Notes: a model not told the origin generated them from the letters alone. 27,486 bases of DNA from a virus (IMGVR_UViG_2909282993_000005); one strand, 5' to 3'. Shown: positions 3,019 to 25,847, counted from the first letter of the stretch. A program made the numbers and translations.

Positions 3019-3600
3019 TTACCCTATAGGTGCTACTGGCCATTCAATATCCGGTGCAGTTGTTGTATTAACACGGTTCAGCAACACCCGATACTTCTTC
3101 CAGGCTTCCAGCAACGAGATTTCTTCCTCCGTTGCAATTTCCAGATCTGCAGCATCCTGAAGCGGCGCAATATGCTCACTGGCTACCTGCATCAGGTTGT
3201 TTTTTGTTTCTTCCGCCTCCCGGATCCGGAACAGTTTTTCTGCTTCCGTATCCTTCACCCAGGCTGTGCCGTTCCACTTCTGATATTCCCCTTCCGGCGA
3301 TAACCAGGTGACATTTTCCGGTAACGAGCCAAGTTCAGAAATAAATAACGCGTCGCCGGAAGCCACGTCATAGACGGTTTTTCCCCGATGATCTTCAACG
3401 AGATGCCACGATGCCTCATCACTGTTGAAAACAGCCACAAAGCCAGCCGGAATATCTGGCGGTGCAATATCGGTACTGTTTGCTGGCAGACCTGTATGAG
3501 GCGGAATATATGCGTCACCTTCACCAATAAATTCATTAGTTCCGGCCAGCAGATTATAAATTTTTATGGTCCGTGGTTGTTCACTCATTCTGAATGCCAT
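3019..3600 (-). CDS. Tail fiber assembly protein (Tfa family)
   Basis: 193-aa ORF starting [54 protein letters not shown] and ending [13 protein letters not shown]...IEWP, characteristic of lambdoid TfaQ/TfaR/TfaE proteins. Its start overlaps the stf stop. Confidence 0.85.
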
Positions 3601-4193
3601 TATGCAAGCCTCACAATATAGTTAAATGCGATGTTTTTGACGGTGTTTTCCGCGTTACCAGCAGCGTTAACGGTGATGGTGTGTCCATGTGAACCAATCG
3701 CAACGGAGTGCGTATGAGCACCAATACCGACAGTATGCGCGTGTGCACCTGCAGATGCTGCTGTGCCGGACAGTGAGTGGCTATGATTACCATCTGTACT
3801 GGTATTAGCTAACCACCCCGTAGACATACCTACTGAGCCTTGTACACCCCAGGTATTTTGACCTGAGCTTGTATAACCATATTGATAAGTATCTTTAAAA
3901 ACACTGGGGTTAAATCGACGGCCATCTCTATGGCTGTGATTACCAGCTGCATTCGTGCTGCCACTTAAACTATGGGTATGCGCACCAGTGTTATTCGTGG
4001 ATTTAGTGCCGTAATCAAACGACGATGTGGTTTTCGTCCCCAAATCCGTACTGGATGCGCTGGCGCTGTGGGTATGCGATTTAATGCCGTCCTGTTCCTG
4101 AGACAATACGGCCCGACCACTGGTAGGTTTGCCCTTAATCGTCCAGCCACGCATAACCCTGCGTCTGTCAGCACAGTAAAACCCGGTGTGCAT
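3600..4193 (-). pseudogene. Side tail fiber protein, C-terminal fragment only (5' part and all upstream morphogenesis genes deleted)
   Basis: 197-aa ORF with Gly/Ser/Thr/His-rich repeats ([46 protein letters not shown]) typical of the C-terminus of Stf proteins. The first ~20 residues look unrelated, and no tail genes lie upstream. Confidence 0.7.
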
Positions 4194-7189: not shown

Positions 7190-7306
7190 TTTTCCTCACA
7201 TATGTCATATAGTAAAGGATTATATATACCGTTGTTTTGGACGCTCAAACAGCGAATCAGATCAAATAAAACGCACATTTGTTAACATTTACACAAAGTC
7301 TGCGTG

Positions 7307-7327
7307 GGATATTCTGAAAGAATATCC
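7307..7327. promoter_or_regulatory. 21-bp perfect palindrome ggatattc-tgaaa-gaatatcc (candidate dimeric regulator binding site)
   Basis: Read directly: 8-bp inverted arms around a 5-nt spacer, about 120 bp upstream of the lipoprotein gene start at 7189. No T-run, so not a terminator. Confidence 0.3.
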
Positions 7328-7722
7328 ATAATGTGGAGAGAATCTATTGAAGTGCATGGTGCCGGGTGCCTCCCGGTGAATTCAGTACCAGCACCTGAAT
7401 CCGCGATTATCCCATATACCTACTCGCTGATTGCCCCTCCGCACAGGGGGATTCACCATGCCAGTTTCTTTTAACAAACTCCCCGCAAACCAGAGAACAG
7501 TCAACCGCCTGAATTGTGAAGTATTTAAAAATTTCTCCCGCTAACTGATACCCGGCTAACAGTCTGGCGTTTTCTTTTTCAGCAACGGGAAAGCAACAAC
7601 CACCACACCCGCCACCAGCACACCGTCAGCCAGCACTGACATTATCCGGCTGCTGCAATGCCATTCACAAAAACAGTAAGCAATCACTTTTTACCGTAAC
7701 AGGTGATAATCCAGATATGTAT

Positions 7723-8186: not shown

Positions 8187-8263
8187 TGGCGCGCTGTACT
8201 GGATTCGAACCAGTAACCGATTGCTTAGAAGGCAATTGCTCTGTCCGGCTGAGCTAACAACGC
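8187..8263 (-). tRNA. tRNA-Arg (anticodon UCU)
   Basis: 77-nt cloverleaf GCGTTGTTAGCTCAGCCGGACAGAGCAATTGCCTTCTAAGCAATCGGTTACTGGTTCGAATCCAGTACAGCGCGCCA. 7-bp acceptor stem, T-loop GGTTCGAATCC, anticodon loop CTTCTAA (U33, anticodon TCT, A37), encoded CCA. Confidence 0.85.
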
Positions 8264-8367
8264 TGAATACCGATAATGGACCGCTATCGGGGACCCGCCC
8301 CCCCCCGCACCAACAACCCTGTTATCGTGTCGTCTGCTCTTCCTGATAAGCTCATGGCGGTTTGTGA

Positions 8368-8443
8368 TGGTGGCCCTTGCTGGATTTGAACCAGCGACCT
8401 GGCGATTATGAGTCGCTCGCTCTCACCACTGAGCTAAAGGGCC
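8368..8443 (-). tRNA. tRNA with CAU anticodon, most similar to tRNA-Ile2 (lysidine type, ileX/ileZ-like); elongator Met not fully excluded
   Basis: 76-nt cloverleaf GGCCCTTTAGCTCAGTGGTGAGAGCGAGCGACTCATAATCGCCAGGTCGCTGGTTCAAATCCAGCAAGGGCCACCA. Anticodon loop CTCATAA; strong resemblance to E. coli ileX from recall. Confidence 0.8.
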
Positions 8444-11288: not shown

Positions 11289-11444
11289 TTACTCCTCAGG
11301 TTCGTAAACTGTGAAGACAGCGACCTCCGTCTGGCCGGTTCGGATTCGTAACTCGCAGAGGTCTTTCCTCGTTACCAGTGCCGTCACTATGACGGTTAAA
11401 CAGATGACGATCAGGGCGATTAACATCGCCTTTTGCTGCTTCAT
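11289..11444 (-). CDS. hokD: Hok/Gef-family type I toxin (HokD/RelF-like, 51 aa); in-frame upstream extension to 11501 corresponds to a Mok-like reading frame
   Basis: MKQQKAMLIALIVICLTVIVTALVTRKDLCELRIRTGQTEVAVFTVYEPEE, near-identical to HokD/RelF from recall: single TM helix plus conserved C-terminal periplasmic tail. Confidence 0.9.
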   Translation of the reverse strand: MKQQKAMLIALIVICLTVIVTALVTRKDLCELRIRTGQTEVAVFTVYEPEE

Positions 11445-12164
11445 AGCCTGCTTCTCCTTGCCTTTCGGCACGTAAGAGGCTAACCTAGATTTGCCGTTCA
11501 TAGATTGAGCCTCAGATTAATGTTAAGCGTCTTGCAGGACGCGTAATGTTAACTGGGGCTTTTCTCTATCTGCCTTTGGTGTTCATGCCTGAGGCAGATA
11601 GCCTCAAGCACCCGCAGCAATTCTACTTAACTCCCGTCACCTCGCCAATATAAAATCAATCAGAAAGGCGATCCATAAGAACAACAGCAAGACAATAAAT
11701 TGCCATTACAGCCGCAATAGCTAGCGCACATTTGAGAACCAGCACGACAACCTCCTGTATTGGACGTACACCAGTTCTGATAAATATGAGGCTGTCTCAT
11801 CATTGATTCAATATAACTATTGGGTATAGTTTCTGTGATTTTGTTCTGTAGAAATGGAACACAACAACCAGTCACCACCAGCACTTCTTTAAATACGCCA
11901 AGTCCGACGCAAGCTAACCTTCTAGTCCGCTTTGAGCGAGGAGCGGACCAAACCCGGCCAACTGACTCTTAAAGGGGCCGCAGGAATTTTTCGTCTGAAC
12001 TTTCGAAGCTCCTCTCCCTGAAGACAGAAAACTTCTGTGTGCTGTGGGAATATTGAATCTTTGCATTAGATATAAATAATTTTATCCCGCCTGAAGTTTA
12101 CATTATTTTATTTATCTGTTTTTCTAAATCAGACTGCACTCCTTACTTAAATCAGGAGCCAGTC

Positions 12165-13364
12165 ATGCCATTTGTTATTTATGTGTTTACTATCAGTGCC
12201 TTTGCGCTCGGACTCGCGGAATTTGTCCCCATTGGGCTGACAGACGTTATGGCTCAGGGGTTGTGTGTGGGTGTGGAGCAGACCGGGGCAGCGGTTACAA
12301 CCTATGCACTGGGGGCAACGTTCGCGGCACCCGTACTGTCTGCGCTGACAGCAAGCTGGAGCCGGAAAAATGTAATGCTTACAACTGCCGTTGTGTTTAC
12401 TGCCGGTAGTCTGGCGGCCGCGTTTGCAGCCACATTACCTCAGCTCCTGTTAGCGCGGTTCATTGCTGGTCTGGGACACGGCCTGTTTCTGGCTGCGGCA
12501 TCCAGTACCGCAGCTCGTCTTGCTGGACCGGGTAAAGCAGGCAGAGCGGTGGCTGTGGTATTTGGTGGCTTTACTCTGGCGATGGCAATCGGCGTACCGC
12601 TGAGTACATGGTTGGGGGGGGTGGTCTCATGGCGTCCAGTTCTCGGCGCTATTGCCGCTTTTGGCGCGTTCGGATTCCTTGGACTGTTGTTCGGTATGAA
12701 AGATCCCGTACGCAGCGTGCCCGGTGAACATAGTGACTCAGCAATGCAGAATATCGGCATGCTGTTTAACCGTAAGTTGCTGGCCGGCGCGCTGGTTACG
12801 GTGCTGGCGTATGCAGGCTCGTTTACGGCTTACACCTTTATCGCACCTATTCTGACGCAGGTGACAGGGGTTACCGGAGCAAAGGTGAGTCTGTTTATGC
12901 TGGTTTACGGTATTACAGCTGCGGTAGGTAATATTCTTGGTGGGAAACTTACCGACAGCATGGGGGTTAATCGTGCCAATATACTCATCATTAGCGGCAT
13001 TGTTGTTGTCGTGCTTGGTATGTGGCTGCTGTCATCCTCACCGGTGAGCATGGGCATTCTGGTTGCGCTGCTGGGTATGGTGACATTTGCCGCAGTGCCG
13101 GCACTGCAGGCCCGTCTGATTGGTGTCGCTGAGCAACATGCTCCTCATGCGCATGGTGTTGCTGCCGGCCTGAATATTGCGGGCTTCAACTCAGGTATAG
13201 CGCTGGGATCAGTACTGGGCAGCATTACTATAAGCCACGCCGGTATCGTGTATACCGGTATCAGCGGTGCGATTGTTTCTCTGCTCGGCCTGCTGTTGCT
13301 GCTTGCACAAATCCGTCGCAGCCACAGTCGTAAATTTCAACAGGTTAAAATCGTAGGCCAGTAA
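12165..13364 (+). CDS. MFS transporter (12-TM, DHA1-like efflux/sugar-type family); GC-rich gene
   Basis: 399-aa highly hydrophobic ORF with MFS loop motifs; AGGAG RBS. Nucleotide composition is visibly more GC-rich than the flanking phage DNA. Confidence 0.8.
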   Translation: MPFVIYVFTISAFALGLAEFVPIGLTDVMAQGLCVGVEQTGAAVTTYALGATFAAPVLSALTASWSRKNVMLTTAVVFTAGSLAAAFAATLPQLLLARFIAGLGHGLFLAAASSTAARLAGPGKAGRAVAVVFGGFTLAMAIGVPLSTWLGGVVSWRPVLGAIAAFGAFGFLGLLFGMKDPVRSVPGEHSDSAMQNIGMLFNRKLLAGALVTVLAYAGSFTAYTFIAPILTQVTGVTGAKVSLFMLVYGITAAVGNILGGKLTDSMGVNRANILIISGIVVVVLGMWLLSSSPVSMGILVALLGMVTFAAVPALQARLIGVAEQHAPHAHGVAAGLNIAGFNSGIALGSVLGSITISHAGIVYTGISGAIVSLLGLLLLLAQIRRSHSRKFQQVKIVGQ

Positions 13365-13375
13365 AGGGAGGTTAT

Positions 13376-14068
13376 ATGCTTACCCGTGAAAATATGCTTA
13401 ATGGCACATTTGTCAGGGTGCATGAAGCGCTGCTCCCGGCGAATATGCTCTGGGACGCTGAAAAAATACGCGCATCAATGAACTCTACTCTGGAGGAGCG
13501 CCCGACGGGTGCTCCTTTCTGGATATTTGCCTACGGGTCATTGATGTGGAATCCCGTGCTGGCAATTGAAGAAATGCAACGGGCCCGTCTGAAAGGATGG
13601 CAGCGCAGTTTCTGCATTCGTTTGATATCCGGACGAGCGACTCCTGATGTCCCCGGCAGGATGTTATCGCTCGACGAAGGTGGAATTACCGAAGGTATTG
13701 CGTTCAGACTGCCGGAATCGACTCTTATTAATGAGCTGGAAATTGTCTGGACGCGCGAGATGATAACCGGTCTTTACCGTCCGGTCTGGGCAGACGTTTC
13801 GCTAGGAAACGGTGAGGAAATTCAGGCGCTGGCTTTCGTATCAGACAGACTGCATCCGCATTATGAACAGGACAATCTTACAGCGACCGTAGCGTTGAGC
13901 ATCGCATCTGCCCGTGGAGACATTGGCACGAATGCAGATTATGTATGGAAACTGCAGGCCACTCTGGGTGCGTTGGGAATACGGGATGATTACGTGAGTG
14001 AACTGGCCCTTGCTCTGCATGAGGCTCCCTGTAACGATAAACTTCATCAGCGAGGCGCTTCACTATGA
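13376..14068 (+). CDS. ChaC-family gamma-glutamylcyclotransferase-like protein
   Basis: 230-aa product with FAYGSLMWNP and GRMLSLDEGG...WTREMITG motifs matching the ChaC/GGCT fold signature (YGSL catalytic region). Confidence 0.8.
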   Translation: MLTRENMLNGTFVRVHEALLPANMLWDAEKIRASMNSTLEERPTGAPFWIFAYGSLMWNPVLAIEEMQRARLKGWQRSFCIRLISGRATPDVPGRMLSLDEGGITEGIAFRLPESTLINELEIVWTREMITGLYRPVWADVSLGNGEEIQALAFVSDRLHPHYEQDNLTATVALSIASARGDIGTNADYVWKLQATLGALGIRDDYVSELALALHEAPCNDKLHQRGASL

Positions 14069-14946
14069 GCCATCTGAGCCATCTGCGAACGTTTCTTGAG
14101 GCCTATCGCTCTGGCTCCTTTTCAAAGGCGGCAGAACTACTGGGCATCACTCAGCCCGCGGCGTCACAGCATATCCAGTCTCTTGAGACTCTGGTTGGTA
14201 AGCGTCTGTTTATCAGGCAGGCCAGAGGCGTGACGGCAACCGAAGCTGCGGATGAGCTTGCCCGCTCAGTTTCACCCTTCATTGATGGTCTGGAAGAAAA
14301 GCTGTCCTCTTTCCGGTCAGGCTCTGTACACGGGGGAACAATTAATCTGGCAGGACCGCCAGATTTTATTCATTCCCGGCTTGGGACAGTAATGGCTCCA
14401 CTAATGAAGGAGGGGTATCGCCTACGCTTTCATACCGGCAATAAGCAACGTATTTATTCCCTTTTGCATGACGGGAGCGCCGATCTCGCTGTTACCGCAT
14501 CTATGCCTGATGACCGTCTGTACGGCTATGCACATCTACTGACTGAACGCATGCTCCTTGTTCATGCTCCCGCCATGTCAGAGATCATCGGATCAGAACC
14601 TGGTGCTGAAACGCTTGCCTCATTACCGCTGATTGCTTATGACGAAGAGTTGCCACTGATTAGAGCGCTCTGGGCCTCCATGTTTCAGAGAGCCCCTGAG
14701 ATGCAGGCTACATTCACCATTCCGGATTTACGTATTATCCGCGACTTGGTCTGTGACGGCCACGGGTGGACAGTGCTGCCGGATTATCACTGTGACAATG
14801 ACCTGAAAAGTGGTCGCCTGATTTCAGTGACACCTGCAGACCTCGCTCCGACTAATCATCTTTATCTGGTCTGGAACAAAAGGACGGCTAATAACAGCCG
14901 AACCGCCTATGTTCGGGATTACATTCTTAAAACGTTTCCGCGTTGA
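14065..14946 (+). CDS. LysR-family transcriptional regulator
   Basis: 293-aa product with an N-terminal wHTH typical of LysR (LRTFLEAYRSGSFSKAAELLGITQPAASQHIQSLE) and a C-terminal substrate-binding domain. 4-bp overlap with the ChaC-like gene. Confidence 0.85.
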   Translation: MSHLSHLRTFLEAYRSGSFSKAAELLGITQPAASQHIQSLETLVGKRLFIRQARGVTATEAADELARSVSPFIDGLEEKLSSFRSGSVHGGTINLAGPPDFIHSRLGTVMAPLMKEGYRLRFHTGNKQRIYSLLHDGSADLAVTASMPDDRLYGYAHLLTERMLLVHAPAMSEIIGSEPGAETLASLPLIAYDEELPLIRALWASMFQRAPEMQATFTIPDLRIIRDLVCDGHGWTVLPDYHCDNDLKSGRLISVTPADLAPTNHLYLVWNKRTANNSRTAYVRDYILKTFPR

Positions 14947-14990
14947 TGTTTGAAACGGATGATTGGCGATGTGTATCATAAGTTACGTAT

Positions 14991-15020
14991 GTCCGCTTCT
15001 GGCACAAAGCAGACGCCCAC
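14991..15020. repeat. 30-bp imperfect direct repeat, copy A (gtccgcttctggcacaaagcagacgcccac)
   Basis: Matches copy B at 18664..18693 in 24/30 positions, with a 14-bp core GGCACAAAGCrGAC. Lies between the LysR stop and the convergent membrane-protein gene. Confidence 0.5.
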
Positions 15021-15076
15021 TCTCACGCGAATGCTTTGCCCTTGACTTGCCAACAACCGTATCGCTTGCTCCGCAA

Positions 15077-16369
15077 CTATGGTTTTTTATTAGAACCTTC
15101 GCCACTAAATAAATTATAATAAATTGATTTTATTAGATATCTGTCAGAATCTATATGGTCAGCACGAGTAGCATGCTCTAATGTTTCAAATGCTAGGGTT
15201 TGTGCGGCTTCAGCAAAAATTCCAGGCCAACCCTTACTCAGCATCGACAGTCCTTTAAGTACCCTTATCTGAATTTCCCTCATACTGGCACCATCGCGCG
15301 CAACAGGTGAGAAAAAGTCTTCAAGTAGATCGTTATTCTGAAGTGGTGCAACATGTACAGAAGGATATTTCACTTCTATTTCATCAGATTTATTCTGCGC
15401 GTAAGCGGAAAGTATACGTACACCTCTGCCAATGACATCAATGGCGGTTCCAGGATCGTTCACTGCGGGGGAAAGGGCTCGGCAGGCTATTTCGGCCATG
15501 ACGCTAAGACAAAATCGGGGGTCCTGAGCAAATGAACGTACATCCGAGACAATAATCGTCTCAAGTAAATCGGTGCTGATTGATGACTCCTGGCCCTGAC
15601 TCAGGTACAAAACTGGCGTGGACGGATGTATGAAACTGCCCGGCTGCGCCACGAGGTATACATGACGGGGATCATTGGTCAGCAGCTTGCTGAGTTTCAC
15701 CATATCAACATATTCAACATAGCCAATCTTTTTCGGATAAACTGCAACCGTTCCTTTCGGCTGTTCATTGTTCTCAAGCCATGGATATCCGCCGAGACAG
15801 GGATTTCTTGCTCTCGCAATAAATGTTTCGATGGCCGCCTGTTCTACTTTTGCCGTTGTCTCACCAACCCTCCCCAGAGAGGTCAAATGCTGTATCCAGC
15901 GAAGCAATGTGATGAGGATTAAGGCAATGACAACCAGTGTTACAATGAATAAAATGACTCTCCCCCTTTCTCCATAAGCTCCCATATTGAGGGCAATAAT
16001 CCCTACCAGACTGAAGAGAAAAGAACCGATGAAGGTGGCCAGTACATTTTGTGTGGTGACGTCTTCAACAACTAAACGAGTAGCTCTGGGAGTCACATTA
16101 GTAGTGGCTGAACCGTAGGCTGTGACCATGATGCTCAGCGAAAATGTGGTCACTGCCAGCATACTCGATGCCAGTATGTTCAGAATGTTATCGACTGCTT
16201 CCGCACCAACCTTCACGGAAACCGACTCAGGTATCATTGATTTAAAAAGAATTGATAAAAGGGCCGTTATTATTGCGACAATTGCGAATAACGTTGCCCT
16301 GAACCATAGTTTTTTAAATGTCTGCTTCAGCATCCATTTCCAGCGTGAAATCATTCTGCATTCCCTCAT
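15077..16369 (-). CDS. Membrane protein with N-terminal multi-TM region and C-terminal soluble domain (tentatively DUF2254-like); exact start uncertain (alternative Met codons at residues 6 and 13)
   Basis: 430-aa ORF with four predicted hydrophobic helices in the first ~160 residues and a long hydrophilic C-terminus. Family name is tentative recall. Confidence 0.55.
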   Translation of the reverse strand: MRECRMISRWKWMLKQTFKKLWFRATLFAIVAIITALLSILFKSMIPESVSVKVGAEAVDNILNILASSMLAVTTFSLSIMVTAYGSATTNVTPRATRLVVEDVTTQNVLATFIGSFLFSLVGIIALNMGAYGERGRVILFIVTLVVIALILITLLRWIQHLTSLGRVGETTAKVEQAAIETFIARARNPCLGGYPWLENNEQPKGTVAVYPKKIGYVEYVDMVKLSKLLTNDPRHVYLVAQPGSFIHPSTPVLYLSQGQESSISTDLLETIIVSDVRSFAQDPRFCLSVMAEIACRALSPAVNDPGTAIDVIGRGVRILSAYAQNKSDEIEVKYPSVHVAPLQNNDLLEDFFSPVARDGASMREIQIRVLKGLSMLSKGWPGIFAEAAQTLAFETLEHATRADHIDSDRYLIKSIYYNLFSGEGSNKKP

Positions 16370-16417
16370 ATTGCAGCCGGGATAAATAAATGCCGCCTCT
16401 GTGGCGGCATGTTGCTG

Positions 16418-18421
16418 TTAACGAACCAGATGCAGGAAGTGCAGGTGTTTTTCGTACTGGTCCAGTATGTCATTAATCAGCTGTTCCTGATTCCAGCCCA
16501 TTACATCATAATTTTGGCCGCCCTCTTTGAGATAGACTTCAGCGCGATAATATCGATGTTGTTCACTCTGCTGCTCATCATTATCCAGCGCAGCGAGCGC
16601 GAAGGTCGGTGAGTTATACCCGCGAAGCCTCACTTCATATATATAATTCAGCTCGTTGCCCAAATCGACTTCAAGGCGAATACGATCCTCGGCGGCGTCA
16701 CTGATGTGGCTTATCGTTCCCTGCTTGTTAAGTTCCTCCTGAACCAGCGTCATGGCGGGTTGGATAATGTCGTCCATAAAACGTTTCACAAGAGAGCGCT
16801 TCGGCAAATACGCGATATTGCGTAACCTTCTCTGCCAGGGAATTGGGTTACGTGCAGCCGTAGGAGCAATAGTCGCCATGCTAAGGCTTTCACGCTTGGT
16901 CAAATCCCGACGCAGGGCTTTTAACAGTCCGTATATGGATATTAATAAGATAACTGAGAAGGGCAATGCACTCGCTATCGTTACGGTTTGCAACGCACTC
17001 AGCCCCCCTGCGATCAGCAGGGCAATAGCAACAACGCCCATGAGCGATGCCCAGAAAATTCGCTGCCAGACGGGCGTGTTTGCCACCCCACCTGATGCCA
17101 GAGTATCCACAACCATTGCCCCCGAATCAGCAGACGTTACAAAGAAGACGATGACCATCGCCATTGCAATGAATGACAGCACGGAAGAGAACGGGAAATG
17201 CTCCAGGAAATTAAACAGGGCAAGCGCAACATCCTGCTGAACGGTATTGGCGAGGTCAGTGGCGCCCTGGTTCATGATGAGATAGATGGCGCTGTTTCCA
17301 AACACCGTCATCCACATGAGCGTAAAGCCGGCGGGAACAAACAACACGCCAGTCACGAACTCACGAATTGTCCTGCCGCGGGAAACGCGTGCAATGAACA
17401 TACCTACAAACGGCGACCATGAAAGCCACCATCCCCAGTATAATAATGTCCAGCCCCCCAGCCAGTTGCTCGACTTGGGTTCATACGCGTAAAGGTTGAA
17501 CGTTTTACTCACCAGTTCCGACAGATAACCACCCGTATTTTCCACAAATGACTTCAGCAGAAGCACAGTGGGACCCAGGCACAAGACCAGCGCCAGGAGC
17601 AACACCGCCAGGCCCAGATTAAGCTCAGACAGGATGCGTATTCCCTTGTCCAGGCCGGACACCACCGAAATCGTCGCTAACCCCGTGATGACCACGATCA
17701 AAATGACCTGTACCGTTTCATTGATGGGCACGCCGAAAAGATGGTTCAAACCGGCATTCACCTGCAATACACCGTAACCCAGTGATGTTGCAACGCCAAA
17801 GACAGTGCCTATCACGGCGAAGATATCAACCGCGTGGCCTATAGGCCCGTAAATGCGATCGCCGATAATGGGATAGAGCGCAGAACGCAGCGTTAAAGGC
17901 AGACCGTGACGGTAACTGAAAAAGGCCAGAATCAGCGCCACGATGGCATAAATTGCCCATGCGTGCAGACCCCAGTGGAAGAACGTCAGGCGCATGGCTT
18001 CCTTCGCTGCCGCAACGGTCTCTGGAGTGCCGACAGGTGGCGAAAGATAATGCATCACAGGTTCGGCAACGCCAAAGAACATCAGGCCGATCCCCATCCC
18101 TGCCGAAAAAAGCATCGCGAACCAGGAGTGGTAGCTGAAATCAGGCTGCGCATGGTCTGGGCCCAGCTTTATATCACCGTAACGTGAGAGTCCAAGGAAC
18201 GTGACGCTCAGTAAAATCAGGGCCACAGCAAGTATGTAGAACCAGCTGGCATTCGTGAAGATTTGTTGCTGAAGTAGTTTAAAATTTTTGTCGGCGACAT
18301 CCGGGAATACGGCGGCAAAGGCGACAAGAAGGAAAATTAGCAAAGCAGATGTAAAGAATACCGCTTTGTTAATCTGGCTTGTAGACTTCTTTGGGGTTGT
18401 ATCATTTTCACTCATAATCAT
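16418..18421 (-). CDS. BCCT-family transporter (BetT-like choline/betaine/carnitine transporter)
   Basis: 667-aa product with BCCT signature regions (WTLLYWGWWLSWSPFVGMFIARVSRGRTIREF) and the C-terminal DILDQYEKHLHFLHL tail typical of BetT. Confidence 0.85.
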   Translation of the reverse strand: MIMSENDTTPKKSTSQINKAVFFTSALLIFLLVAFAAVFPDVADKNFKLLQQQIFTNASWFYILAVALILLSVTFLGLSRYGDIKLGPDHAQPDFSYHSWFAMLFSAGMGIGLMFFGVAEPVMHYLSPPVGTPETVAAAKEAMRLTFFHWGLHAWAIYAIVALILAFFSYRHGLPLTLRSALYPIIGDRIYGPIGHAVDIFAVIGTVFGVATSLGYGVLQVNAGLNHLFGVPINETVQVILIVVITGLATISVVSGLDKGIRILSELNLGLAVLLLALVLCLGPTVLLLKSFVENTGGYLSELVSKTFNLYAYEPKSSNWLGGWTLLYWGWWLSWSPFVGMFIARVSRGRTIREFVTGVLFVPAGFTLMWMTVFGNSAIYLIMNQGATDLANTVQQDVALALFNFLEHFPFSSVLSFIAMAMVIVFFVTSADSGAMVVDTLASGGVANTPVWQRIFWASLMGVVAIALLIAGGLSALQTVTIASALPFSVILLISIYGLLKALRRDLTKRESLSMATIAPTAARNPIPWQRRLRNIAYLPKRSLVKRFMDDIIQPAMTLVQEELNKQGTISHISDAAEDRIRLEVDLGNELNYIYEVRLRGYNSPTFALAALDNDEQQSEQHRYYRAEVYLKEGGQNYDVMGWNQEQLINDILDQYEKHLHFLHLVR

Positions 18422-20360: not shown

Positions 20361-20786
20361 TCAATGCACAGCCACAATATTTCCTGCAGGGCCACCACGA
20401 TTCATCTGGTTGAAACCAGCGATCGCCACTGCGACAAAATCATCAGCGTCTCTCACCAGTCGTTCCCGCGTCTCCACTAGTTCCCGAAAATAGGCTGAGC
20501 TATGGCTGCGCATTCGGGCCACCAGCAGAGGTGGCATTGCTTTTTCGATAGCTGGTAACAACGCCTGAATTTTTTCAACTGCATCAGGGGTGTCTTTCTC
20601 TACCCAGCGGAAAATTTTCTGGGTATTGCGAGCCAGGGCTTCCGGATGGCTGTCGTCATACAGTTCTGGGAACGTCATACCCAGTTCAAAATAAGCCCTG
20701 GTTATTTCAGCTGCCGGAACTTTTTCACCGTCCGGATGCGCCCAGGCATTCATCGCCATGCGGATGTGTTCATGCTTGATTTTCAT
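20361..20786 (-). CDS. YdaT-like protein (cII-position early protein of Rac-type prophages)
   Basis: 141-aa product beginning MKIKHEHI and ending VH with central KIQALLPAI, resembling Rac YdaT from recall; AGGAG RBS. Confidence 0.5.
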   Translation of the reverse strand: MKIKHEHIRMAMNAWAHPDGEKVPAAEITRAYFELGMTFPELYDDSHPEALARNTQKIFRWVEKDTPDAVEKIQALLPAIEKAMPPLLVARMRSHSSAYFRELVETRERLVRDADDFVAVAIAGFNQMNRGGPAGNIVAVH

Positions 20787-21051
20787 GAATCAAGCTCCTA
20801 GAAAGTGGTTGTGTTAACATTTTGGTATCTTCCAGCTCGGGCCAAATATTCATCCAATCAAAAGGCCTTAGTTGCTGACGTGTAACTTCACCATTACTGG
20901 CTCGCTCAATAAGGACACATAACGATGCCCCTAACACTTGACCTTTACTCAATGCCTTTCTTAGATAACCGATGCTGGTACCACACTCGCATGCAAACAT
21001 ACGCTGTTCATCTGACGAAAGAGAATTGAGAAATATTCTTAATTCTTCCAT
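20770..21051 (-). CDS. Cro-like HTH protein of the YdaS family
   Basis: 93-aa product with HTH (QRMFACECGTSIGYLRKALSKGQ) and an ERASNGEVTRQQLRP motif resembling YdaS. Strong AAGGAG RBS; divergent from the repressor gene. Confidence 0.6.
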   Translation of the reverse strand: MEELRIFLNSLSSDEQRMFACECGTSIGYLRKALSKGQVLGASLCVLIERASNGEVTRQQLRPFDWMNIWPELEDTKMLTQPLSRSLIHENQA

Positions 21052-21080: not shown

Positions 21081-21116
21081 TACCCACAGGTAAACAAAAG
21101 TCAATACCCACAGGTT
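21081..21116. promoter_or_regulatory. Operator-like sites in the divergent repressor/cro-like intergenic region: TACCCACAGGTA (21081-21092) and TACCCACAGGTT (21105-21116)
   Basis: Two copies of a 12-bp near-palindrome spaced 24 bp apart between divergent genes, related to two more copies downstream of the repressor gene. A further half-match overlaps the repressor start codon. Confidence 0.5.
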
Positions 21117-21151
21117 GTTTACCTTGCAGTAATCGCATCTATTATTTACCT

Positions 21152-21571
21152 ATGGACAAATATGAATTTAGACGACAGCAACTCATCAAAATTCGTGATG
21201 AGAAATGCGATGGTAAAGCGGTTAACGTGGCCAGAAAGATCGGGCGCGAGCCTTCTTATGTATCAAGAATGTTGTACCCAGAGGGGAAAAAGGGAAAAAA
21301 ACGGATCGCTGATGATATGGTGGAGATTATCGAAGAGTCCTTTGGGTTACCCCGGGGATGGATGGATGGTATCGTTTCATCATCAACGAACACAGCCTCC
21401 AGTTATGAAACAAGGGTTCTAACGCCACGACAACGTATTTTTTTAGATCTCTTAGACGAACTGCCAGAAAGTGAAGCGGATAACTTATTAAAAACTCTTG
21501 AAGAGAAAAAACAGTATTACAATATGATCTACGAAGAAATCCGTAAAAAGAAAGCACAAAACGCATCATAG
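21152..21571 (+). CDS. CI/DicA/RacR-position prophage repressor-like protein
   Basis: 139-aa ORF divergent from the cro-like gene with a putative HTH (KAVNVARKIGREPSYVSRMLY). C-terminal FLDLLDELPESEADNLL resembles the DicA C-terminus from recall. No obvious RBS, so possibly a leaderless transcript. Confidence 0.5.
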   Translation: MDKYEFRRQQLIKIRDEKCDGKAVNVARKIGREPSYVSRMLYPEGKKGKKRIADDMVEIIEESFGLPRGWMDGIVSSSTNTASSYETRVLTPRQRIFLDLLDELPESEADNLLKTLEEKKQYYNMIYEEIRKKKAQNAS

Positions 21572-21613: not shown

Positions 21614-21650
21614 TACCCATGGGTATTTACTTTTTAAATACCTATGGGTA
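21614..21650. promoter_or_regulatory. Operator-like palindromes downstream of the repressor gene (OL-equivalent): TACCCATGGGTA (21614-21625) and TACCTATGGGTA (21639-21650)
   Basis: Perfect and near-perfect 12-bp palindromes, 13 bp apart, upstream of the rightward ydfA-like operon. Confidence 0.5.
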
Positions 21651-21836: not shown

Positions 21837-21992
21837 ATGGATACTATCGATCTTGGCAACAGCGAATCTCTGGTATGTGGCGTGTTCCCCAACCAAGACG
21901 GTACGTTCACCGCGATGACGTATACCAAAAGCAAAACGTTTAAAACCGAAAATGGTGCCCGTCGCTGGCTGGAAAGAAACTCAGGTGAGTGA
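21837..21992 (+). CDS. Small phage protein, YdfA-like (51 aa)
   Basis: MDTIDLGNSESLVCGVFPNQDGTFTAMTYTKSKTFKTENGARRWLERNSGE with a GAGG RBS. First gene of the early-left operon, as in the Qin dicA-ydfABC-dicF-dicB arrangement. Confidence 0.5.
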   Translation: MDTIDLGNSESLVCGVFPNQDGTFTAMTYTKSKTFKTENGARRWLERNSGE

Positions 21993-21993
21993 T

Positions 21994-22122
21994 ATGGATT
22001 TCGACACAATCATGGAAAAGGCTTACGAAGAATACTTCGAAGGTCTTGCCGAAGGCGAAGAAGCTCTCAGCTTCAACGAATTTAAACAGGCGCTTTCCAG
22101 TTCGGCAAAATCTAACGGCTGA
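21994..22122 (+). CDS. Small acidic phage protein, YdfB-like (42 aa)
   Basis: MDFDTIMEKAYEEYFEGLAEGEEALSFNEFKQALSSSAKSNG. Start 2 nt after the preceding stop with a GGTGA RBS. Not in the supplied ORF track (below size cut-off). Confidence 0.4.
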   Translation: MDFDTIMEKAYEEYFEGLAEGEEALSFNEFKQALSSSAKSNG

Positions 22123-22151: not shown

Positions 22152-22367
22152 ATGCAGAAACGAGAACCCGTCATCATCGCGCCAGACTATACCGATGATG
22201 AACTTTATGAGTGGATGCACCAGAAAATTAATGCAGCGCAGGATCTGAAATGGGCCAATGAAGCTAGGGCTAAGCAGGCTGAAAATCTGTCCGCTCTGGA
22301 GCAGGATATCACCAATCTGGAAAAAGCAGCAGCATTAAGCATTGCCAGAATGATTACAGGTTGGTAA
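22152..22367 (+). CDS. Small phage protein, YdfC-like (71 aa)
   Basis: ORF with GAGGA RBS, positioned between the ydfB-like gene and dicF. Confidence 0.5.
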   Translation: MQKREPVIIAPDYTDDELYEWMHQKINAAQDLKWANEARAKQAENLSALEQDITNLEKAAALSIARMITGW

Positions 22368-22678
22368 TAAAGGAGTTCTCCACGGGTGAGGTGGAGTGCG
22401 TGTGCCGGACACGGGTGAGCATCCGGCACTGACAGTTTACTGAAAGGATATTTCCCTGAAAAGTCAGACCATAACGCGAAAGCGCACGGCGAGGTAGCTG
22501 GTTCATAGATAGCCTGTCGTTAAATTTTCGTCGACCGTGCGCTTCCGGTTGTGGCAATCCGCGAAATGGCGCGGCGGTAAGTATGGCGGGGTTATTCCTT
22601 CCCCGTTGAGGACACCGGGTTGTCAGGTTGACCATACGCTTAAGTGACAACCCCGCTGCAACGCCCTCTGTTATCAAT

Positions 22679-22731
22679 TTTCTGGTGACGTTTGGCGGTA
22701 TCAGTTTTACTCCGTGACTGCTCTGCCGCCC
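22679..22731 (+). ncRNA. dicF: DicF small RNA (cell-division inhibitor sRNA targeting ftsZ mRNA)
   Basis: 53-nt sequence TTTCTGGTGACGTTTGGCGGTATCAGTTTTACTCCGTGACTGCTCTGCCGCCC matches DicF from recall, followed by a T-run (22732-22736) and preceded by a structured ~300-nt leader. Confidence 0.8.
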
Positions 22732-22905
22732 TTTTTAAAGTGAATTTTGTGATGTGGTGAATGCGGCTGAGCGCACGCGGAACAGTTAAAACCAAAAACA
22801 GTGTTATGGGTGGATTCTCTGTATCCGGCGTTAATTGTTAACTGGTTAACGTCACCTGGAGGCACCAGGCACCGCATCACAAAATTCATTGTTGAGGACG
22901 CGATA

Positions 22906-23094
22906 ATGAAAACGTTATTACCAAACGTTAATACGTCTGAAGGTTGTTTTGAAATTGGTGTCACTATCAGTAACCCAGTATTTACTGAAGATGCCATTAA
23001 CAAGAGAAAACAAGAACGGGAGCTATTAAATAAAATATGCATTGTTTCAATGCTGGCTCGTTTACGTCTGATGCCAAAAAGATGTGCACAATGA
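22906..23094 (+). CDS. dicB: Cell division inhibitor DicB (MinC-activating, 62 aa)
   Basis: MKTLLPNVNTSEGCFEIGVTISNPVFTEDAINKRKQERELLNKICIVSMLARLRLMPKRCAQ, essentially the DicB sequence as recalled. Confidence 0.85.
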   Translation: MKTLLPNVNTSEGCFEIGVTISNPVFTEDAINKRKQERELLNKICIVSMLARLRLMPKRCAQ

Positions 23095-23282
23095 ATTCAG
23101 CATTTGCGCTTGTTCTGACAGTTTTTCTTGTTTCCGGAGAGCCAGTTGATATTGCAGTCAGTGTTCACAGGACAATGCAGGAGTGTATGACTGCAGCAAC
23201 CGAACAGAAAATTCCCGGTAACTGTTACCCGGTCGATAAAGTTATTCACCAGGATAATATCGAAATCCCGGCAGGTCTTTAA
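23091..23282 (+). CDS. ydfD: YdfD-like small membrane protein (63 aa; the Qin homolog is reported to cause lysis when expressed)
   Basis: MNSAFALVLTVFLVSGEPVDIAVSVHRTMQECMTAATEQKIPGNCYPVDKVIHQDNIEIPAGL with an N-terminal TM helix. ATGA overlap with the dicB stop. Confidence 0.6.
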   Translation: MNSAFALVLTVFLVSGEPVDIAVSVHRTMQECMTAATEQKIPGNCYPVDKVIHQDNIEIPAGL

Positions 23283-23375
23283 AACAGTTCCGTAATAAAT
23301 ATCCGGTTTCATTCTTATATGCCAGCAATGGCAGGGATTTATTCATCCTTAAATCTGTCATGAGGTTAAAATAAA

Positions 23376-25847
23376 ATGAGTAAAGTCTTTATTTGCGCCG
23401 CTATTCCTGACGAACTGGCAACAAGGGAAGAAGGCGCTGTGGCTGTAGCCACAGCCATTGAAGCTGGCGACGAACGCCGTGCTCGAGCAAAATTTCACTG
23501 GCAATTCCTGGAACATTATCCGGCTGCTCAGGACTGCGCTTATAAATTTATTGTCTGCGAGGATAAACCTGGCATACCCCGCCCAGCCCTCGATTCATGG
23601 GATGCTGAATATATGCAGGAAAACCGCTGGGATGAGGATTCTGCTTCTTTTGTTCCGGTTGAGACTGAATCCGATCCGATGAACGTCACTTTTGACAAGC
23701 TGGCCCCTGAAGTACAGAACGCTGTCATGGTTAAGTTCGACACATGTGAAAACATCACCGTTGATATGATTATTAGCGCGCAGGAATTGTTGCAGGAAGA
23801 CATGGCAACATTCGACGGACATATCGTTGAAGCGTTGATGAAAATGCCAGAAGTTAACGCCATGTATCCGGAGCTTAAGTTGCACGCCATTGGGTGGGTT
23901 AAGCATAAATGTATTCCTAGTGCTAAATGGCCCGAAATTCAGGCAGAGATGCGCATCTGGAAAAAACGTCGCGAAGGTGAACGCAAGGAAACCGGAAAAT
24001 ACACGTCTGTTGTTGATCTCGCCCGCGCCAGAACCAATCAACAGTACACTGAAAATTCAACAGGAAAAATCTGCCCGGTCATTGCTGCCATTCATCGCGA
24101 ATACAAGCAGACATGGAAAACACTGGATGACGAACTGGCCTACGCTCTCTGGCCTGGTGATGTGGGTGCCGGAAACATTGACGGCAGCATCCATCGCTGG
24201 GCAAAAAAAGAAGTTATCGACAACGACCGCGAAGACTGGAAGCGTATCTCGGCATCAATGCGCAAACAGCCTGATGCCCTTCGCTACGACCGCCAAACTA
24301 TTTTTGGCCTTGTCCGTGAGCGTCCGATCGACATTCACAAAGATCCCGTAGCACTGAACAAATATATCTGCGAATACCTGACGACAAAGGGCGCGTTTGA
24401 GAATGAAGAAACAGACCTGGGCACTGTTGATGTTCTCCAGTCATCAGAAACACAAACTGATGCAGTGGAAACTGAGGTATCTGATATCCCAAAAAATGAA
24501 ACCGCGCCGGAAGCTGAACCATCTGTAGAGCGTGAGGGGCCGTTCTATTTCCTCTTCGCAGATAAGGACGGAGAAAAATACGGTCGCGCAAACAAACTTT
24601 CTGGTCTGGATAAGGCACTGGCTGCTGGCGCCACTGAAATCACAAAAGAAGAATATTTTGCCCGAAAAAATGGCACATACACGGGCTTACCGCAAAATGT
24701 AGATACCGCTGAAGATTCAGAACAACCAGAGCCGATAAAAGTTACCGCTGACGAAGTAAACAAAATTATGCAGGCAGCCAATATCAGCCAGCCTGACGCC
24801 GATAAGTTGCTTGCTGCATCACGTGGTGAATTTGTTGAAGGGATTAGTGACCCGAATGATCCGAAATGGGTTAAGGGGATCCAGACCCGCGATTCTGTGA
24901 ACCAGAACCAGCATGAATCGGAACGGAACTACCAAAAAGCGGAACAAAACAGTCCAAATGCGTTACAAAACGAGCCAGAAACGAAACAGCCTGAACCAGT
25001 GGCGCAACAGGAAGTGGAAAAAGCCTGCACCGCCTGCGGTCAGACCGGCGGCGGCAACTGCCCTGATTGTGGCGCGGTGATGGGCGACGCAACATACCAA
25101 GAAACATTCGATGAAGAGTATCAGGTTGAAGTTCAGGAAGATGATCCGGAGGAAATGGAAGGCGCTGAACATCCACACAAGGAGAACACTGGCGGCAATC
25201 AGCATCACAATAGCGATAATGAAACTGGCGAGACGGCAGATCACCCAATTAAGGTGAACGGTCATCACGAAATCACATCCACCAGCAGGACGTGTGACCA
25301 TCTAATGATCGACCTTGAAACCATGGGAAAAAATCCTGATGCCCCGATCATCTCAATAGGTGCAATATTTTTCGATCCGCAAACCGGAGATATGGGACCG
25401 GAATTTAGTAAGACTATCGATCTGGAAACTGCTGGCGGAGTCATTGATCGGGACACCATTAAATGGTGGCTTAAGCAATCACGCGAAGCGCAATCTGCCA
25501 TTATGACCGATGAAATCCCGTTAGATGATGCACTGTTACAATTGCGGGAATTTATCGACGAAAACTCCGGTGAATTTTTTGTTCATGTCTGGGGAAATGG
25601 AGCCAACTTCGACAACACGATTTTGCGCCGTTCATACGAACGGCAGGGGATCCCCTGCCCGTGGCGTTACTACAACGATCGCGATGTACGCACAATCGTT
25701 GAGCTGGGGAAAGCCATAGACTTCGATGCCAGAACGGCTATTCCATTCGAAGGTGAGCGCCATAATGCACTTGATGACGCCCGTTACCAGGCAAAATACG
25801 TTTCAGTTATCTGGCAAAAACTGATCCCGAGTCAGGCTGATTCTTAA
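23376..25847 (+). CDS. Large recombination-module protein (YdfE-like, often annotated exodeoxyribonuclease VIII-like) with central acidic region, C4 zinc ribbon and C-terminal DEDDh (DnaQ-like) 3'-5' exonuclease domain
   Basis: 823-aa ORF with GAGGT RBS. Exo I LMIDLETMG, Exo II VWGNGANFDNTIL and Exo III HNALDDARYQAKY motifs in the last ~190 residues. Zinc ribbon CTACGQTGGGNCPDCG. Conserved LLAASRGEFVEGISDPNDPKWVKGIQTRD block. Confidence 0.7.
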   Translation: MSKVFICAAIPDELATREEGAVAVATAIEAGDERRARAKFHWQFLEHYPAAQDCAYKFIVCEDKPGIPRPALDSWDAEYMQENRWDEDSASFVPVETESDPMNVTFDKLAPEVQNAVMVKFDTCENITVDMIISAQELLQEDMATFDGHIVEALMKMPEVNAMYPELKLHAIGWVKHKCIPSAKWPEIQAEMRIWKKRREGERKETGKYTSVVDLARARTNQQYTENSTGKICPVIAAIHREYKQTWKTLDDELAYALWPGDVGAGNIDGSIHRWAKKEVIDNDREDWKRISASMRKQPDALRYDRQTIFGLVRERPIDIHKDPVALNKYICEYLTTKGAFENEETDLGTVDVLQSSETQTDAVETEVSDIPKNETAPEAEPSVEREGPFYFLFADKDGEKYGRANKLSGLDKALAAGATEITKEEYFARKNGTYTGLPQNVDTAEDSEQPEPIKVTADEVNKIMQAANISQPDADKLLAASRGEFVEGISDPNDPKWVKGIQTRDSVNQNQHESERNYQKAEQNSPNALQNEPETKQPEPVAQQEVEKACTACGQTGGGNCPDCGAVMGDATYQETFDEEYQVEVQEDDPEEMEGAEHPHKENTGGNQHHNSDNETGETADHPIKVNGHHEITSTSRTCDHLMIDLETMGKNPDAPIISIGAIFFDPQTGDMGPEFSKTIDLETAGGVIDRDTIKWWLKQSREAQSAIMTDEIPLDDALLQLREFIDENSGEFFVHVWGNGANFDNTILRRSYERQGIPCPWRYYNDRDVRTIVELGKAIDFDARTAIPFEGERHNALDDARYQAKYVSVIWQKLIPSQADS

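Follow-up and report, generated by a model that had tools for sequence, protein, structure and literature searches.

The question raised by positions 22368-23282 of a 27,486 nt stretch of viral DNA (IMGVR_UViG_2909282993_000005; the whole stretch is referred to as the window) is whether a defective prophage still holds a complete set of genes for cell division inhibition and lysis, and what the palindromes among these genes are. The interval begins with the first base past the ydfC stop codon and ends with the last base of the ydfD stop codon. An earlier note on this DNA claimed a complete dicF-dicB-ydfD module here, and DicF, dicB and ydfD were all found to be uninterrupted by Rfam, Pfam and alignment with K-12. 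Judged by its sequence, the region is a dicF-dicB-ydfD cell division inhibitor and lysis cassette almost identical to the K-12 copy, and it fell within the dicBF operon family in every test that was run. It is very probably the distal part of an early-left (PL-type) operon with the gene order ydfA-ydfB-ydfC-dicF-dicB-ydfD-exo-xis-int in a Qin-like lambdoid prophage, and would function as its K-12 counterpart does. The module in general is already known biology, as the earlier note had remarked; the dicBF operon has been characterised experimentally in K-12 (PMC10448788, PMC5069750, PMC8835842), and because this operon has been dissected there, current understanding is not changed. The one mildly new point is that the RNA cassettes flanking DicF are also found ahead of phage genes other than dicB, such as kilR and tciA.

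Of 5426 complete E. coli genomes, 4770 contain a match to the 1.7 kb around the module; the identity is 99.9% for strain AR_452 and about 98% for K-12 derivatives. The genes ydfA, ydfB, ydfC, dicB and ydfD are so annotated by RefSeq in near-identical loci. All lie on the plus strand of the window. The first gene of the operon is ydfA (21837-21992), a DUF1391 gene identified by Pfam PF07151 with 96 bits (cut-off 27) and by near-identical genomes. It is followed by ydfB (21994-22122), identified by phrog_2061 and the RefSeq annotation, and by ydfC (22152-22367, 71 aa), identified by phrog_1744 and by alignment. The 3' end of ydfC shows a 32 nt gap in the alignment with K-12, and the C-terminus of YdfC is different. 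The comparison of 22340-23300 with K-12 J53 gave unbroken identity over DicF, about 130 nt upstream of it and about 135 nt downstream. Only two coding changes relative to K-12 were found within 22368-23282, G59R in DicB and V6A in YdfD.

The 53 nt DicF sRNA that had been claimed occupies 22679-22731(+), and together with its intrinsic terminator hairpin and T5 run it reaches 22736. The Rfam search, which covered the whole window, matched RF00039 at 22680-22731(+) over the full model (1-52) with 76.7 bits, compared with a gathering score of 48 (E 1.6e-15). Alignment with K-12 dicF and dicB, which the earlier note had proposed as a check, gave no differences in DicF and one substitution in DicB. 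Disabling substitutions in the DicF seed are absent, as all 53 nt are the same as in K-12 J53. In 69 of the 122 IMG/VR loci with the DicF core, the DicF allele is that of the window, which makes it the commonest. The terminator hairpin, GGCGGUA...UGCCGCC, has a folding energy of -15.9 kcal/mol and is followed by UUUUU. A DicB-family ORF is found at a fixed distance past DicF in about 97 of 101 unique related regions.

The dicB gene at 22906-23094(+) encodes the 62 amino acids expected, and residues 1-62 match positions 1-62 of Pfam profile PF05358 from end to end with 131.6 bits (cut-off 27). The protein is RefSeq WP_001331023.1, as annotated in AR_452 and F8111-1SC3. Its identity to the K-12 protein is 98%, G59R being caused by a change from GGA to AGA at 23080. 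The overlapping ORF of 63 amino acids was likewise confirmed. It is the lysis gene ydfD at 23091-23282(+), which shares 4 nt with dicB, the stop codon of one and the start codon of the other forming ATGA, and which matches Pfam DUF1482 (PF07358) with 92 bits (cut-off 25). In K-12, YdfD causes lysis via inhibition of IspG (PMC8835842). The description of the three elements as apparently intact stands for DicF and for YdfD, where A6 is the majority allele in related loci, and has to be qualified for DicB, which is full-length but carries a rare substitution.

G59R could leave DicB fully active, disable it or have an effect in between. If it weakens or abolishes DicB, the module would be partly disarmed, with DicF and YdfD left as the toxic products on derepression, and the allele may have become fixed in one lineage since it lowers the carrying cost of the operon. 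The R59 allele is indeed rare, with one copy each in 61 of the 5426 complete genomes, while the K-12 (G59) query matches 2645; these counts were obtained with 55 nt queries centred on the SNP, which forced the megablast word across it. Column 59 of DicB is mostly glycine, both in the full-length cluster representatives (G in 48 and K in 5 of 67, with R outside the four commonest residues listed) and in the curated homologues (G in 24 and K in 4 of 28), and the replacement of glycine by arginine is non-conservative. A partly disarmed module is nevertheless unlikely. Conservation in the curated alignment of 28 is lowest in the C-terminal third of DicB, and the lysine that a subgroup of natural homologues has at this column is also basic. 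An AlphaFold model of low confidence (mean pLDDT 65.8) has two helices (11-21 and 24-54) followed by a coil at 55-62, and these last residues are probably an unstructured tail. The reading frame and start context of dicB and the overlapping ydfD are untouched. G59R is thus a rare substitution, non-conservative in kind, of a glycine that is mostly conserved within a variable and probably flexible C-terminal tail. For the DicB of the window, MinC-dependent inhibition of FtsZ ring assembly is predicted from the 98% identity to the K-12 protein.

The untranslated spacer of 543 nt between ydfC and dicB is unusually structured (z = -4.76 in folding compared with shuffled controls), and several long inverted repeats were found inside it, both upstream of DicF and between dicF and dicB. 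The first of these, the inverted repeat I7 at 22477-22547(+), has arms of 13 nt (22477-89 and 22535-47) that are 92% complementary. The stem and its flanks are conserved with K-12; among loci the base of the stem is kept and the apical part, which carries an insert, varies. In K-12, RNase III generates the 5' end of a 190 nt DicF species, from which RNase E then yields the 53 nt form (PMC10448788). Counting 190 nt back from the end of the terminator (22736) leads to 22547, the 3' edge of the stem, and 22477-22547 would accordingly be the published RNase III site. Covariation was looked for in I7 and the variants are mostly mismatches or wobbles, so that they give no independent support beyond the published cleavage site.

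Between this stem and DicF lies a conserved structured leader, designated module A (22548-22670, plus strand), which was delimited by conservation and a consensus fold and would make up the body of the 190 nt precursor. Its consensus fold has an outer helix, GUUGUGG/CUGCAAC, around three hairpins, with a few compensatory changes, which support it more weakly than covariation supports the STnc100-like fold described below. Module A is present in all 101 unique DicF-bearing related regions, and it also occurs without DicF in phage Ayreon, in Stx2c phages, in Salmonella phage F1055 and in the leader of the ban operon of P1, which carries the label "dicF-like region" in the P1 record. A tRNA-like gene was considered and rejected, as none was found by ARAGORN. 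A cis-acting RNA that modifies the polymerase, like put of HK022, and so allows read-through of the DicF terminator for expression of dicB and ydfD would suit the position of module A, which is always found just upstream of a strong intrinsic terminator that has to be read through, and which also opens the long ban operon of P1 and lies near the beginning of PL-side transcripts in other phages. This function is very improbable. Module A has no sequence similarity to the put region of HK022, located from putL/putR inverted similarity, and was rejected as a homologue of it; its three hairpins within an outer helix differ from the two stem-loops of put (PMC9378689); and a stabilising or processing domain of the 190 nt species explains the data equally well.

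The spacer between dicF and dicB is enclosed by the inverted repeat I2, of 19 nt and 95% complementarity, which forms the outer helix (22741-59 and 22870-88) of a structured RNA at 22741-22888(+). This element is the 5' leader of dicB, and its outer helix ends 5 nt short of the dicB Shine-Dalgarno sequence (GAGGA, 22894-98). The Rfam family STnc100 (RF02076) matched the spacer at 22743-22883 over model positions 21-154 only, with 38.4 bits, which is less than the gathering score of 47 (E 8e-7). An alignment of 13 sequences was made from a STnc100 copy elsewhere in the window (7300-7490, minus strand), P1, D6, Rac-SA53, Shigella phage 75/02, the spacer of the window and seven IMG/VR spacer variants. 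In this alignment 98.2% of the cells are paired in the STnc100-like fold, and 11 of 30 pairs are changed on both sides, compared with 2.0 +/- 1.3 in shuffles and at most 4 with slid partners. Because the score is below threshold, the spacer is not ranked as a member of the curated family; with covariation backing a shared fold, it is treated here as a relative of STnc100 in structure. The other copy in the window, at 7300-7490(-), scores fully; it belongs to the late region of the prophage, where a TolA-like ORF follows it. A recent study of STnc100/PasD does not mention DicF or dicB.

The inverted repeats upstream of dicB that had been described as operator-like palindromes thus exist, and the part of that description which does not stand is their role: on the sequence evidence the palindromes inside 22368-22905 are RNA stems of DicF biogenesis and of the dicB leader, read as helices because their arms carry compensatory base changes across phages. 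That they are instead operators of an internal promoter driving dicF or dicB independently, as the wording of the earlier note implies, has hardly any likelihood, although a promoter in front of dicB had once been proposed (ref. 21 of PMC10448788) and the spacer holds GTTAAC-type palindromes, and operators within 22368-22905 were rejected: primer extension and Northern blots in K-12, where the DNA is nearly identical, gave processing from a long transcript and no internal promoter (PMC10448788), the promoter scan reported no promoter-like site on the plus strand of 22368-22905, the boxes of the resident repressor were not found in the spacer, and arms that covary as RNA indicate helices and not protein sites.

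The RNA cassettes around DicF recur ahead of unrelated small genes, dicB in Qin-type, kilR in Rac-type and tciA in P1 and D6 prophages or phages, and among the genes behind them are some known or suspected division inhibitors. The STnc100-like fold lies directly upstream of dicB here, of kilR in Rac-SA53 and in Shigella phage 75/02 Stx, and of tciA in P1 and D6. Copies outside the window were placed at 1534-1723 of the Rac-SA53 locus (L126), 3842-3961 of the P1 locus (L003), 1589-1787 of locus L125 and 1501-1621 of locus L128. RNAs with a DicF-like terminator hairpin and a 5' part unlike that of DicF are found in Rac-type and other phages, at 1490-1544 in Rac-SA53 (L126), about 1625-1675 in Ayreon (L127) and 2553-2654 in P1 (L003). 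They follow module A in Ayreon, the Stx2c phages and P1, and precede the STnc100-like leader in Rac-type phages. They suggest that early-operon sRNAs form a family in which the 5' (seed) part can be exchanged. A tentative extension, for which the odds are rather low, is that module A (about 120 nt) and the STnc100/PasD-like leader are mobile cis-acting elements that gate small phage genes. The gating may act through RNase III processing, access to the ribosome binding site or terminator read-through. If the cassettes do gate expression, at least part of the "STnc100-family sRNAs" would have to be regarded as leader elements and not as free-standing regulators.

Homology to K-12 starts only about 38 nt ahead of ydfA, and the immunity region further upstream differs. 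The position of dicA, upstream of ydfA and on the same strand, is taken by a gene for a 139 amino acid repressor (21152-21571, plus strand; phrog_5736 "transcriptional regulator", E 4e-70), an analogue of DicA/CI of an immunity type unlike that of K-12. Its C-terminal 46 amino acids are 33% identical to the C-terminus of DicA. It has no Pfam match, and hence no S24 peptidase (self-cleavage) domain, which makes RecA-mediated self-cleavage unlikely, and a PDB sequence search gave only matches to winged-helix Z-alpha domains at chance level (E >= 0.08). The places of dicC and ydfX are occupied by genes for a divergent YdaS-like protein (93 aa) and a YdaT-like protein (141 aa), a pair in the cro/cII position at 20361-21051(-). 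The YdaS and YdaT families are labelled toxins in Pfam; here they look like Cro-side immunity regulators. A tblastn search of the window with DicA, DicC, Rem, RelE, YdfX and YdfW gave only the DicA-like C-terminal stretch and a YdfX/YdaT-like match. With dicA and dicC replaced and rem absent, control of the operon as in K-12 was ruled out, and derepression cannot go by the DicA/Rem route of K-12.

The candidate operators lie outside the region, about 1 kb upstream. Two palindromic TACCYATGGGTA boxes, TACCCATGGGTA at 21614-25 and TACCTATGGGTA at 21639-50 (inverted repeat I1), start 43 nt past the stop codon of the repressor gene and are candidate operators of OL type for the 139 amino acid repressor. 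Exact matches to the box were found only at 21614-21650, and copies with one or two mismatches in the divergent promoter region at 21081-21158. The gene layout fits a lambdoid PL-type operon under a CI-like repressor, with the repressor gene upstream on the operon strand and a divergent cro-like gene. All 19 fetched loci whose repressor is 83% or more identical have the boxes, and the boxes are missing from the 106 loci that lack this repressor and from the 7 with a homologue of 39% identity. This co-occurrence fits an operator-repressor pair, and linkage in near-identical DNA would give the same pattern. As RNA, the boxes could form a terminator-like hairpin after the repressor gene, and 21614-21650 was flagged as terminator-like. 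The putative dicBF promoter would be flanked by the boxes, with a -35 hexamer TTTACT at 21626-31, a spacing of 17 nt and a -10 hexamer TATCCT at 21649-54. It is weak, with 8 of 12 consensus positions, and falls below the threshold of the promoter scan.

Every element known to matter in K-12 is conserved, among them the upstream genes, DicF and all the surrounding RNA stems. The parts are established here by sequence alone, and the downstream steps of the following scheme are taken from the K-12 work (PMC10448788, PMC5069750, PMC8835842). In the lysogen, the 139 amino acid DicA analogue, with its different specificity, would keep the operon off, probably at the two boxes. When repression fails, one long transcript would be made. 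RNase III would cleave it in the stem at 22477-22547 to give the 190 nt species, and RNase E would trim this to 53 nt DicF ending at its own terminator. DicF would then block translation of ftsZ mRNA, and likewise of manX, pykA and xylR. Transcripts extending past the DicF terminator would contain the STnc100-like leader, then dicB and ydfD. DicB would bring MinC to the division site, dismantle FtsZ rings and also inhibit ManYZ, and YdfD would cause lysis through a block of IspG.

The integration site of the prophage in E. coli lies between ydfJ and rspB, and the window is 99.9-100% identical to sequenced strains. From 4154 to its end it is 99.9% identical to AR_452. To the left of 4154 it contains ydfJ, tfaQ and a tail-fibre fragment; AR_452 has these three about 22 kb away, on the far side of its terminase, head and tail genes. 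The first 4.4 kb is 100% identical to F8111-1SC3 and O169:H41 F6326-C1, which have the same layout. A deletion junction is placed at about 4154, where the sequence upstream of iss/bor directly adjoins the tail-fibre fragment (3600-4154, minus strand). The loss of about 22 kb of terminase-to-tail genes relative to AR_452 bears out the view of an otherwise decayed prophage, and with the packaging, head and tail genes lost, no particles are made. Retained are immunity, replication-region genes, Q, tRNAs, the lysis cassette, hok/sok and the full exonuclease, xis and int. By its sequence the prophage is less eroded at the int end than Qin of K-12. The next gene of the early-left operon after ydfD, followed by xis and int, encodes an exonuclease of 823 amino acids (23376-25847, plus strand) with a C-terminal Pfam Rv2179c-like 3'-5' exoribonuclease domain (225 bits); it is full-length here, whereas ydfE of K-12 is truncated beside an IS2 remnant and the AR_452 gene is frameshifted.

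Several other features of the window were recorded. An IS009 RNA match (225 bits) lies at 3059-3257(-) inside the tail-fibre assembly gene tfaQ. Two tRNA genes, Arg and Ile in near-identical genomes, are located at 8190-8443(-), downstream of the gene for the Q antiterminator. The type I toxin-antitoxin locus hokD/sok at 11289-11613(-), with an Rfam sok score of 111.7 bits, is a second toxic function retained by the defective prophage and lies beside the DUF968/RusA/Q genes. A non-phage cargo block of five genes at 12165-18421, between hokD and the replication-region genes, encodes an MFS transporter, a gamma-glutamylcyclotransferase, a LysR regulator, a DUF2254 protein and a BCCT transporter; at this position K-12 Qin has relBE-ydfV-flxA.

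As read from its sequence, the strain would carry a repressor-controlled self-toxic set consisting of an sRNA against ftsZ, a MinC-dependent division inhibitor and a lysis protein, all three functions being in a prophage that is no longer able to make virions. By analogy, the DicB of this set would also block phages that depend on ManYZ. The result is useful for annotation and for studies of filamentation, phage resistance and prophage domestication in this lineage. What goes beyond the textbook case is the different immunity module without Rem, the rare G59R allele of DicB and the RNA elements common to other phage operons.

Among known systems, the closest is Qin of K-12. The chromosomal site beside rspB and the gene order are the same, and both prophages are defective. 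DicF is 100% identical, DicB and YdfD are one residue each apart, and the RNA of the leader and spacer is almost identical. The window differs in the lack of dicA, dicC and rem, in place of which it has the phrog_5736 repressor and the YdaS/YdaT-like pair, and in the C-terminus of YdfC and residue 59 of DicB. Its exonuclease, xis and int are full-length, whereas the exonuclease and integrase of K-12 are truncated on either side of the IS2 remnant.

The dicBF locus is widespread and has been recorded in a number of prophage contexts, at times as multiple copies (PMC5069750), and in a functional temperate phage (PMC10448788). A phage search found it in sequenced temperate phages as well. The multiple copies in O157:H7 prophages and those in the temperate phages PhiR42_1, vB_EcoS-813R8 and PPompW share module A, DicF, the STnc100-like leader and a DicB-family ORF with the window, but their upstream genes and their DicB and YdfD sequences vary. 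In some copies a gene for a zinc-binding protein is found in place of ydfA/ydfB. For the Stx-phage and PPompW records (H45-H51) among the matches listed, the DNA match ends at about the first 110 nt of dicB and ydfD is unmatched.

The Rac-type kilR region of Rac-SA53 and Shigella phage 75/02 Stx has the same early-left operon position and a similar succession of a DicF-like terminator-hairpin sRNA, an STnc100-like leader and a small division inhibitor directed at FtsZ. This inhibitor is Kil and not DicB, and the DicF-like RNA, with 41 bits, is below the Rfam threshold and has a different 5' (seed) part. With the STnc100/PasD sRNAs, the dicF-dicB spacer shares the outer helix, a GGUGAAU motif and the CACCNGGAGGCACCNGGCACC hairpin, with compensatory changes; unlike these free-standing sRNA genes, the element in front of dicB is an mRNA 5' leader.
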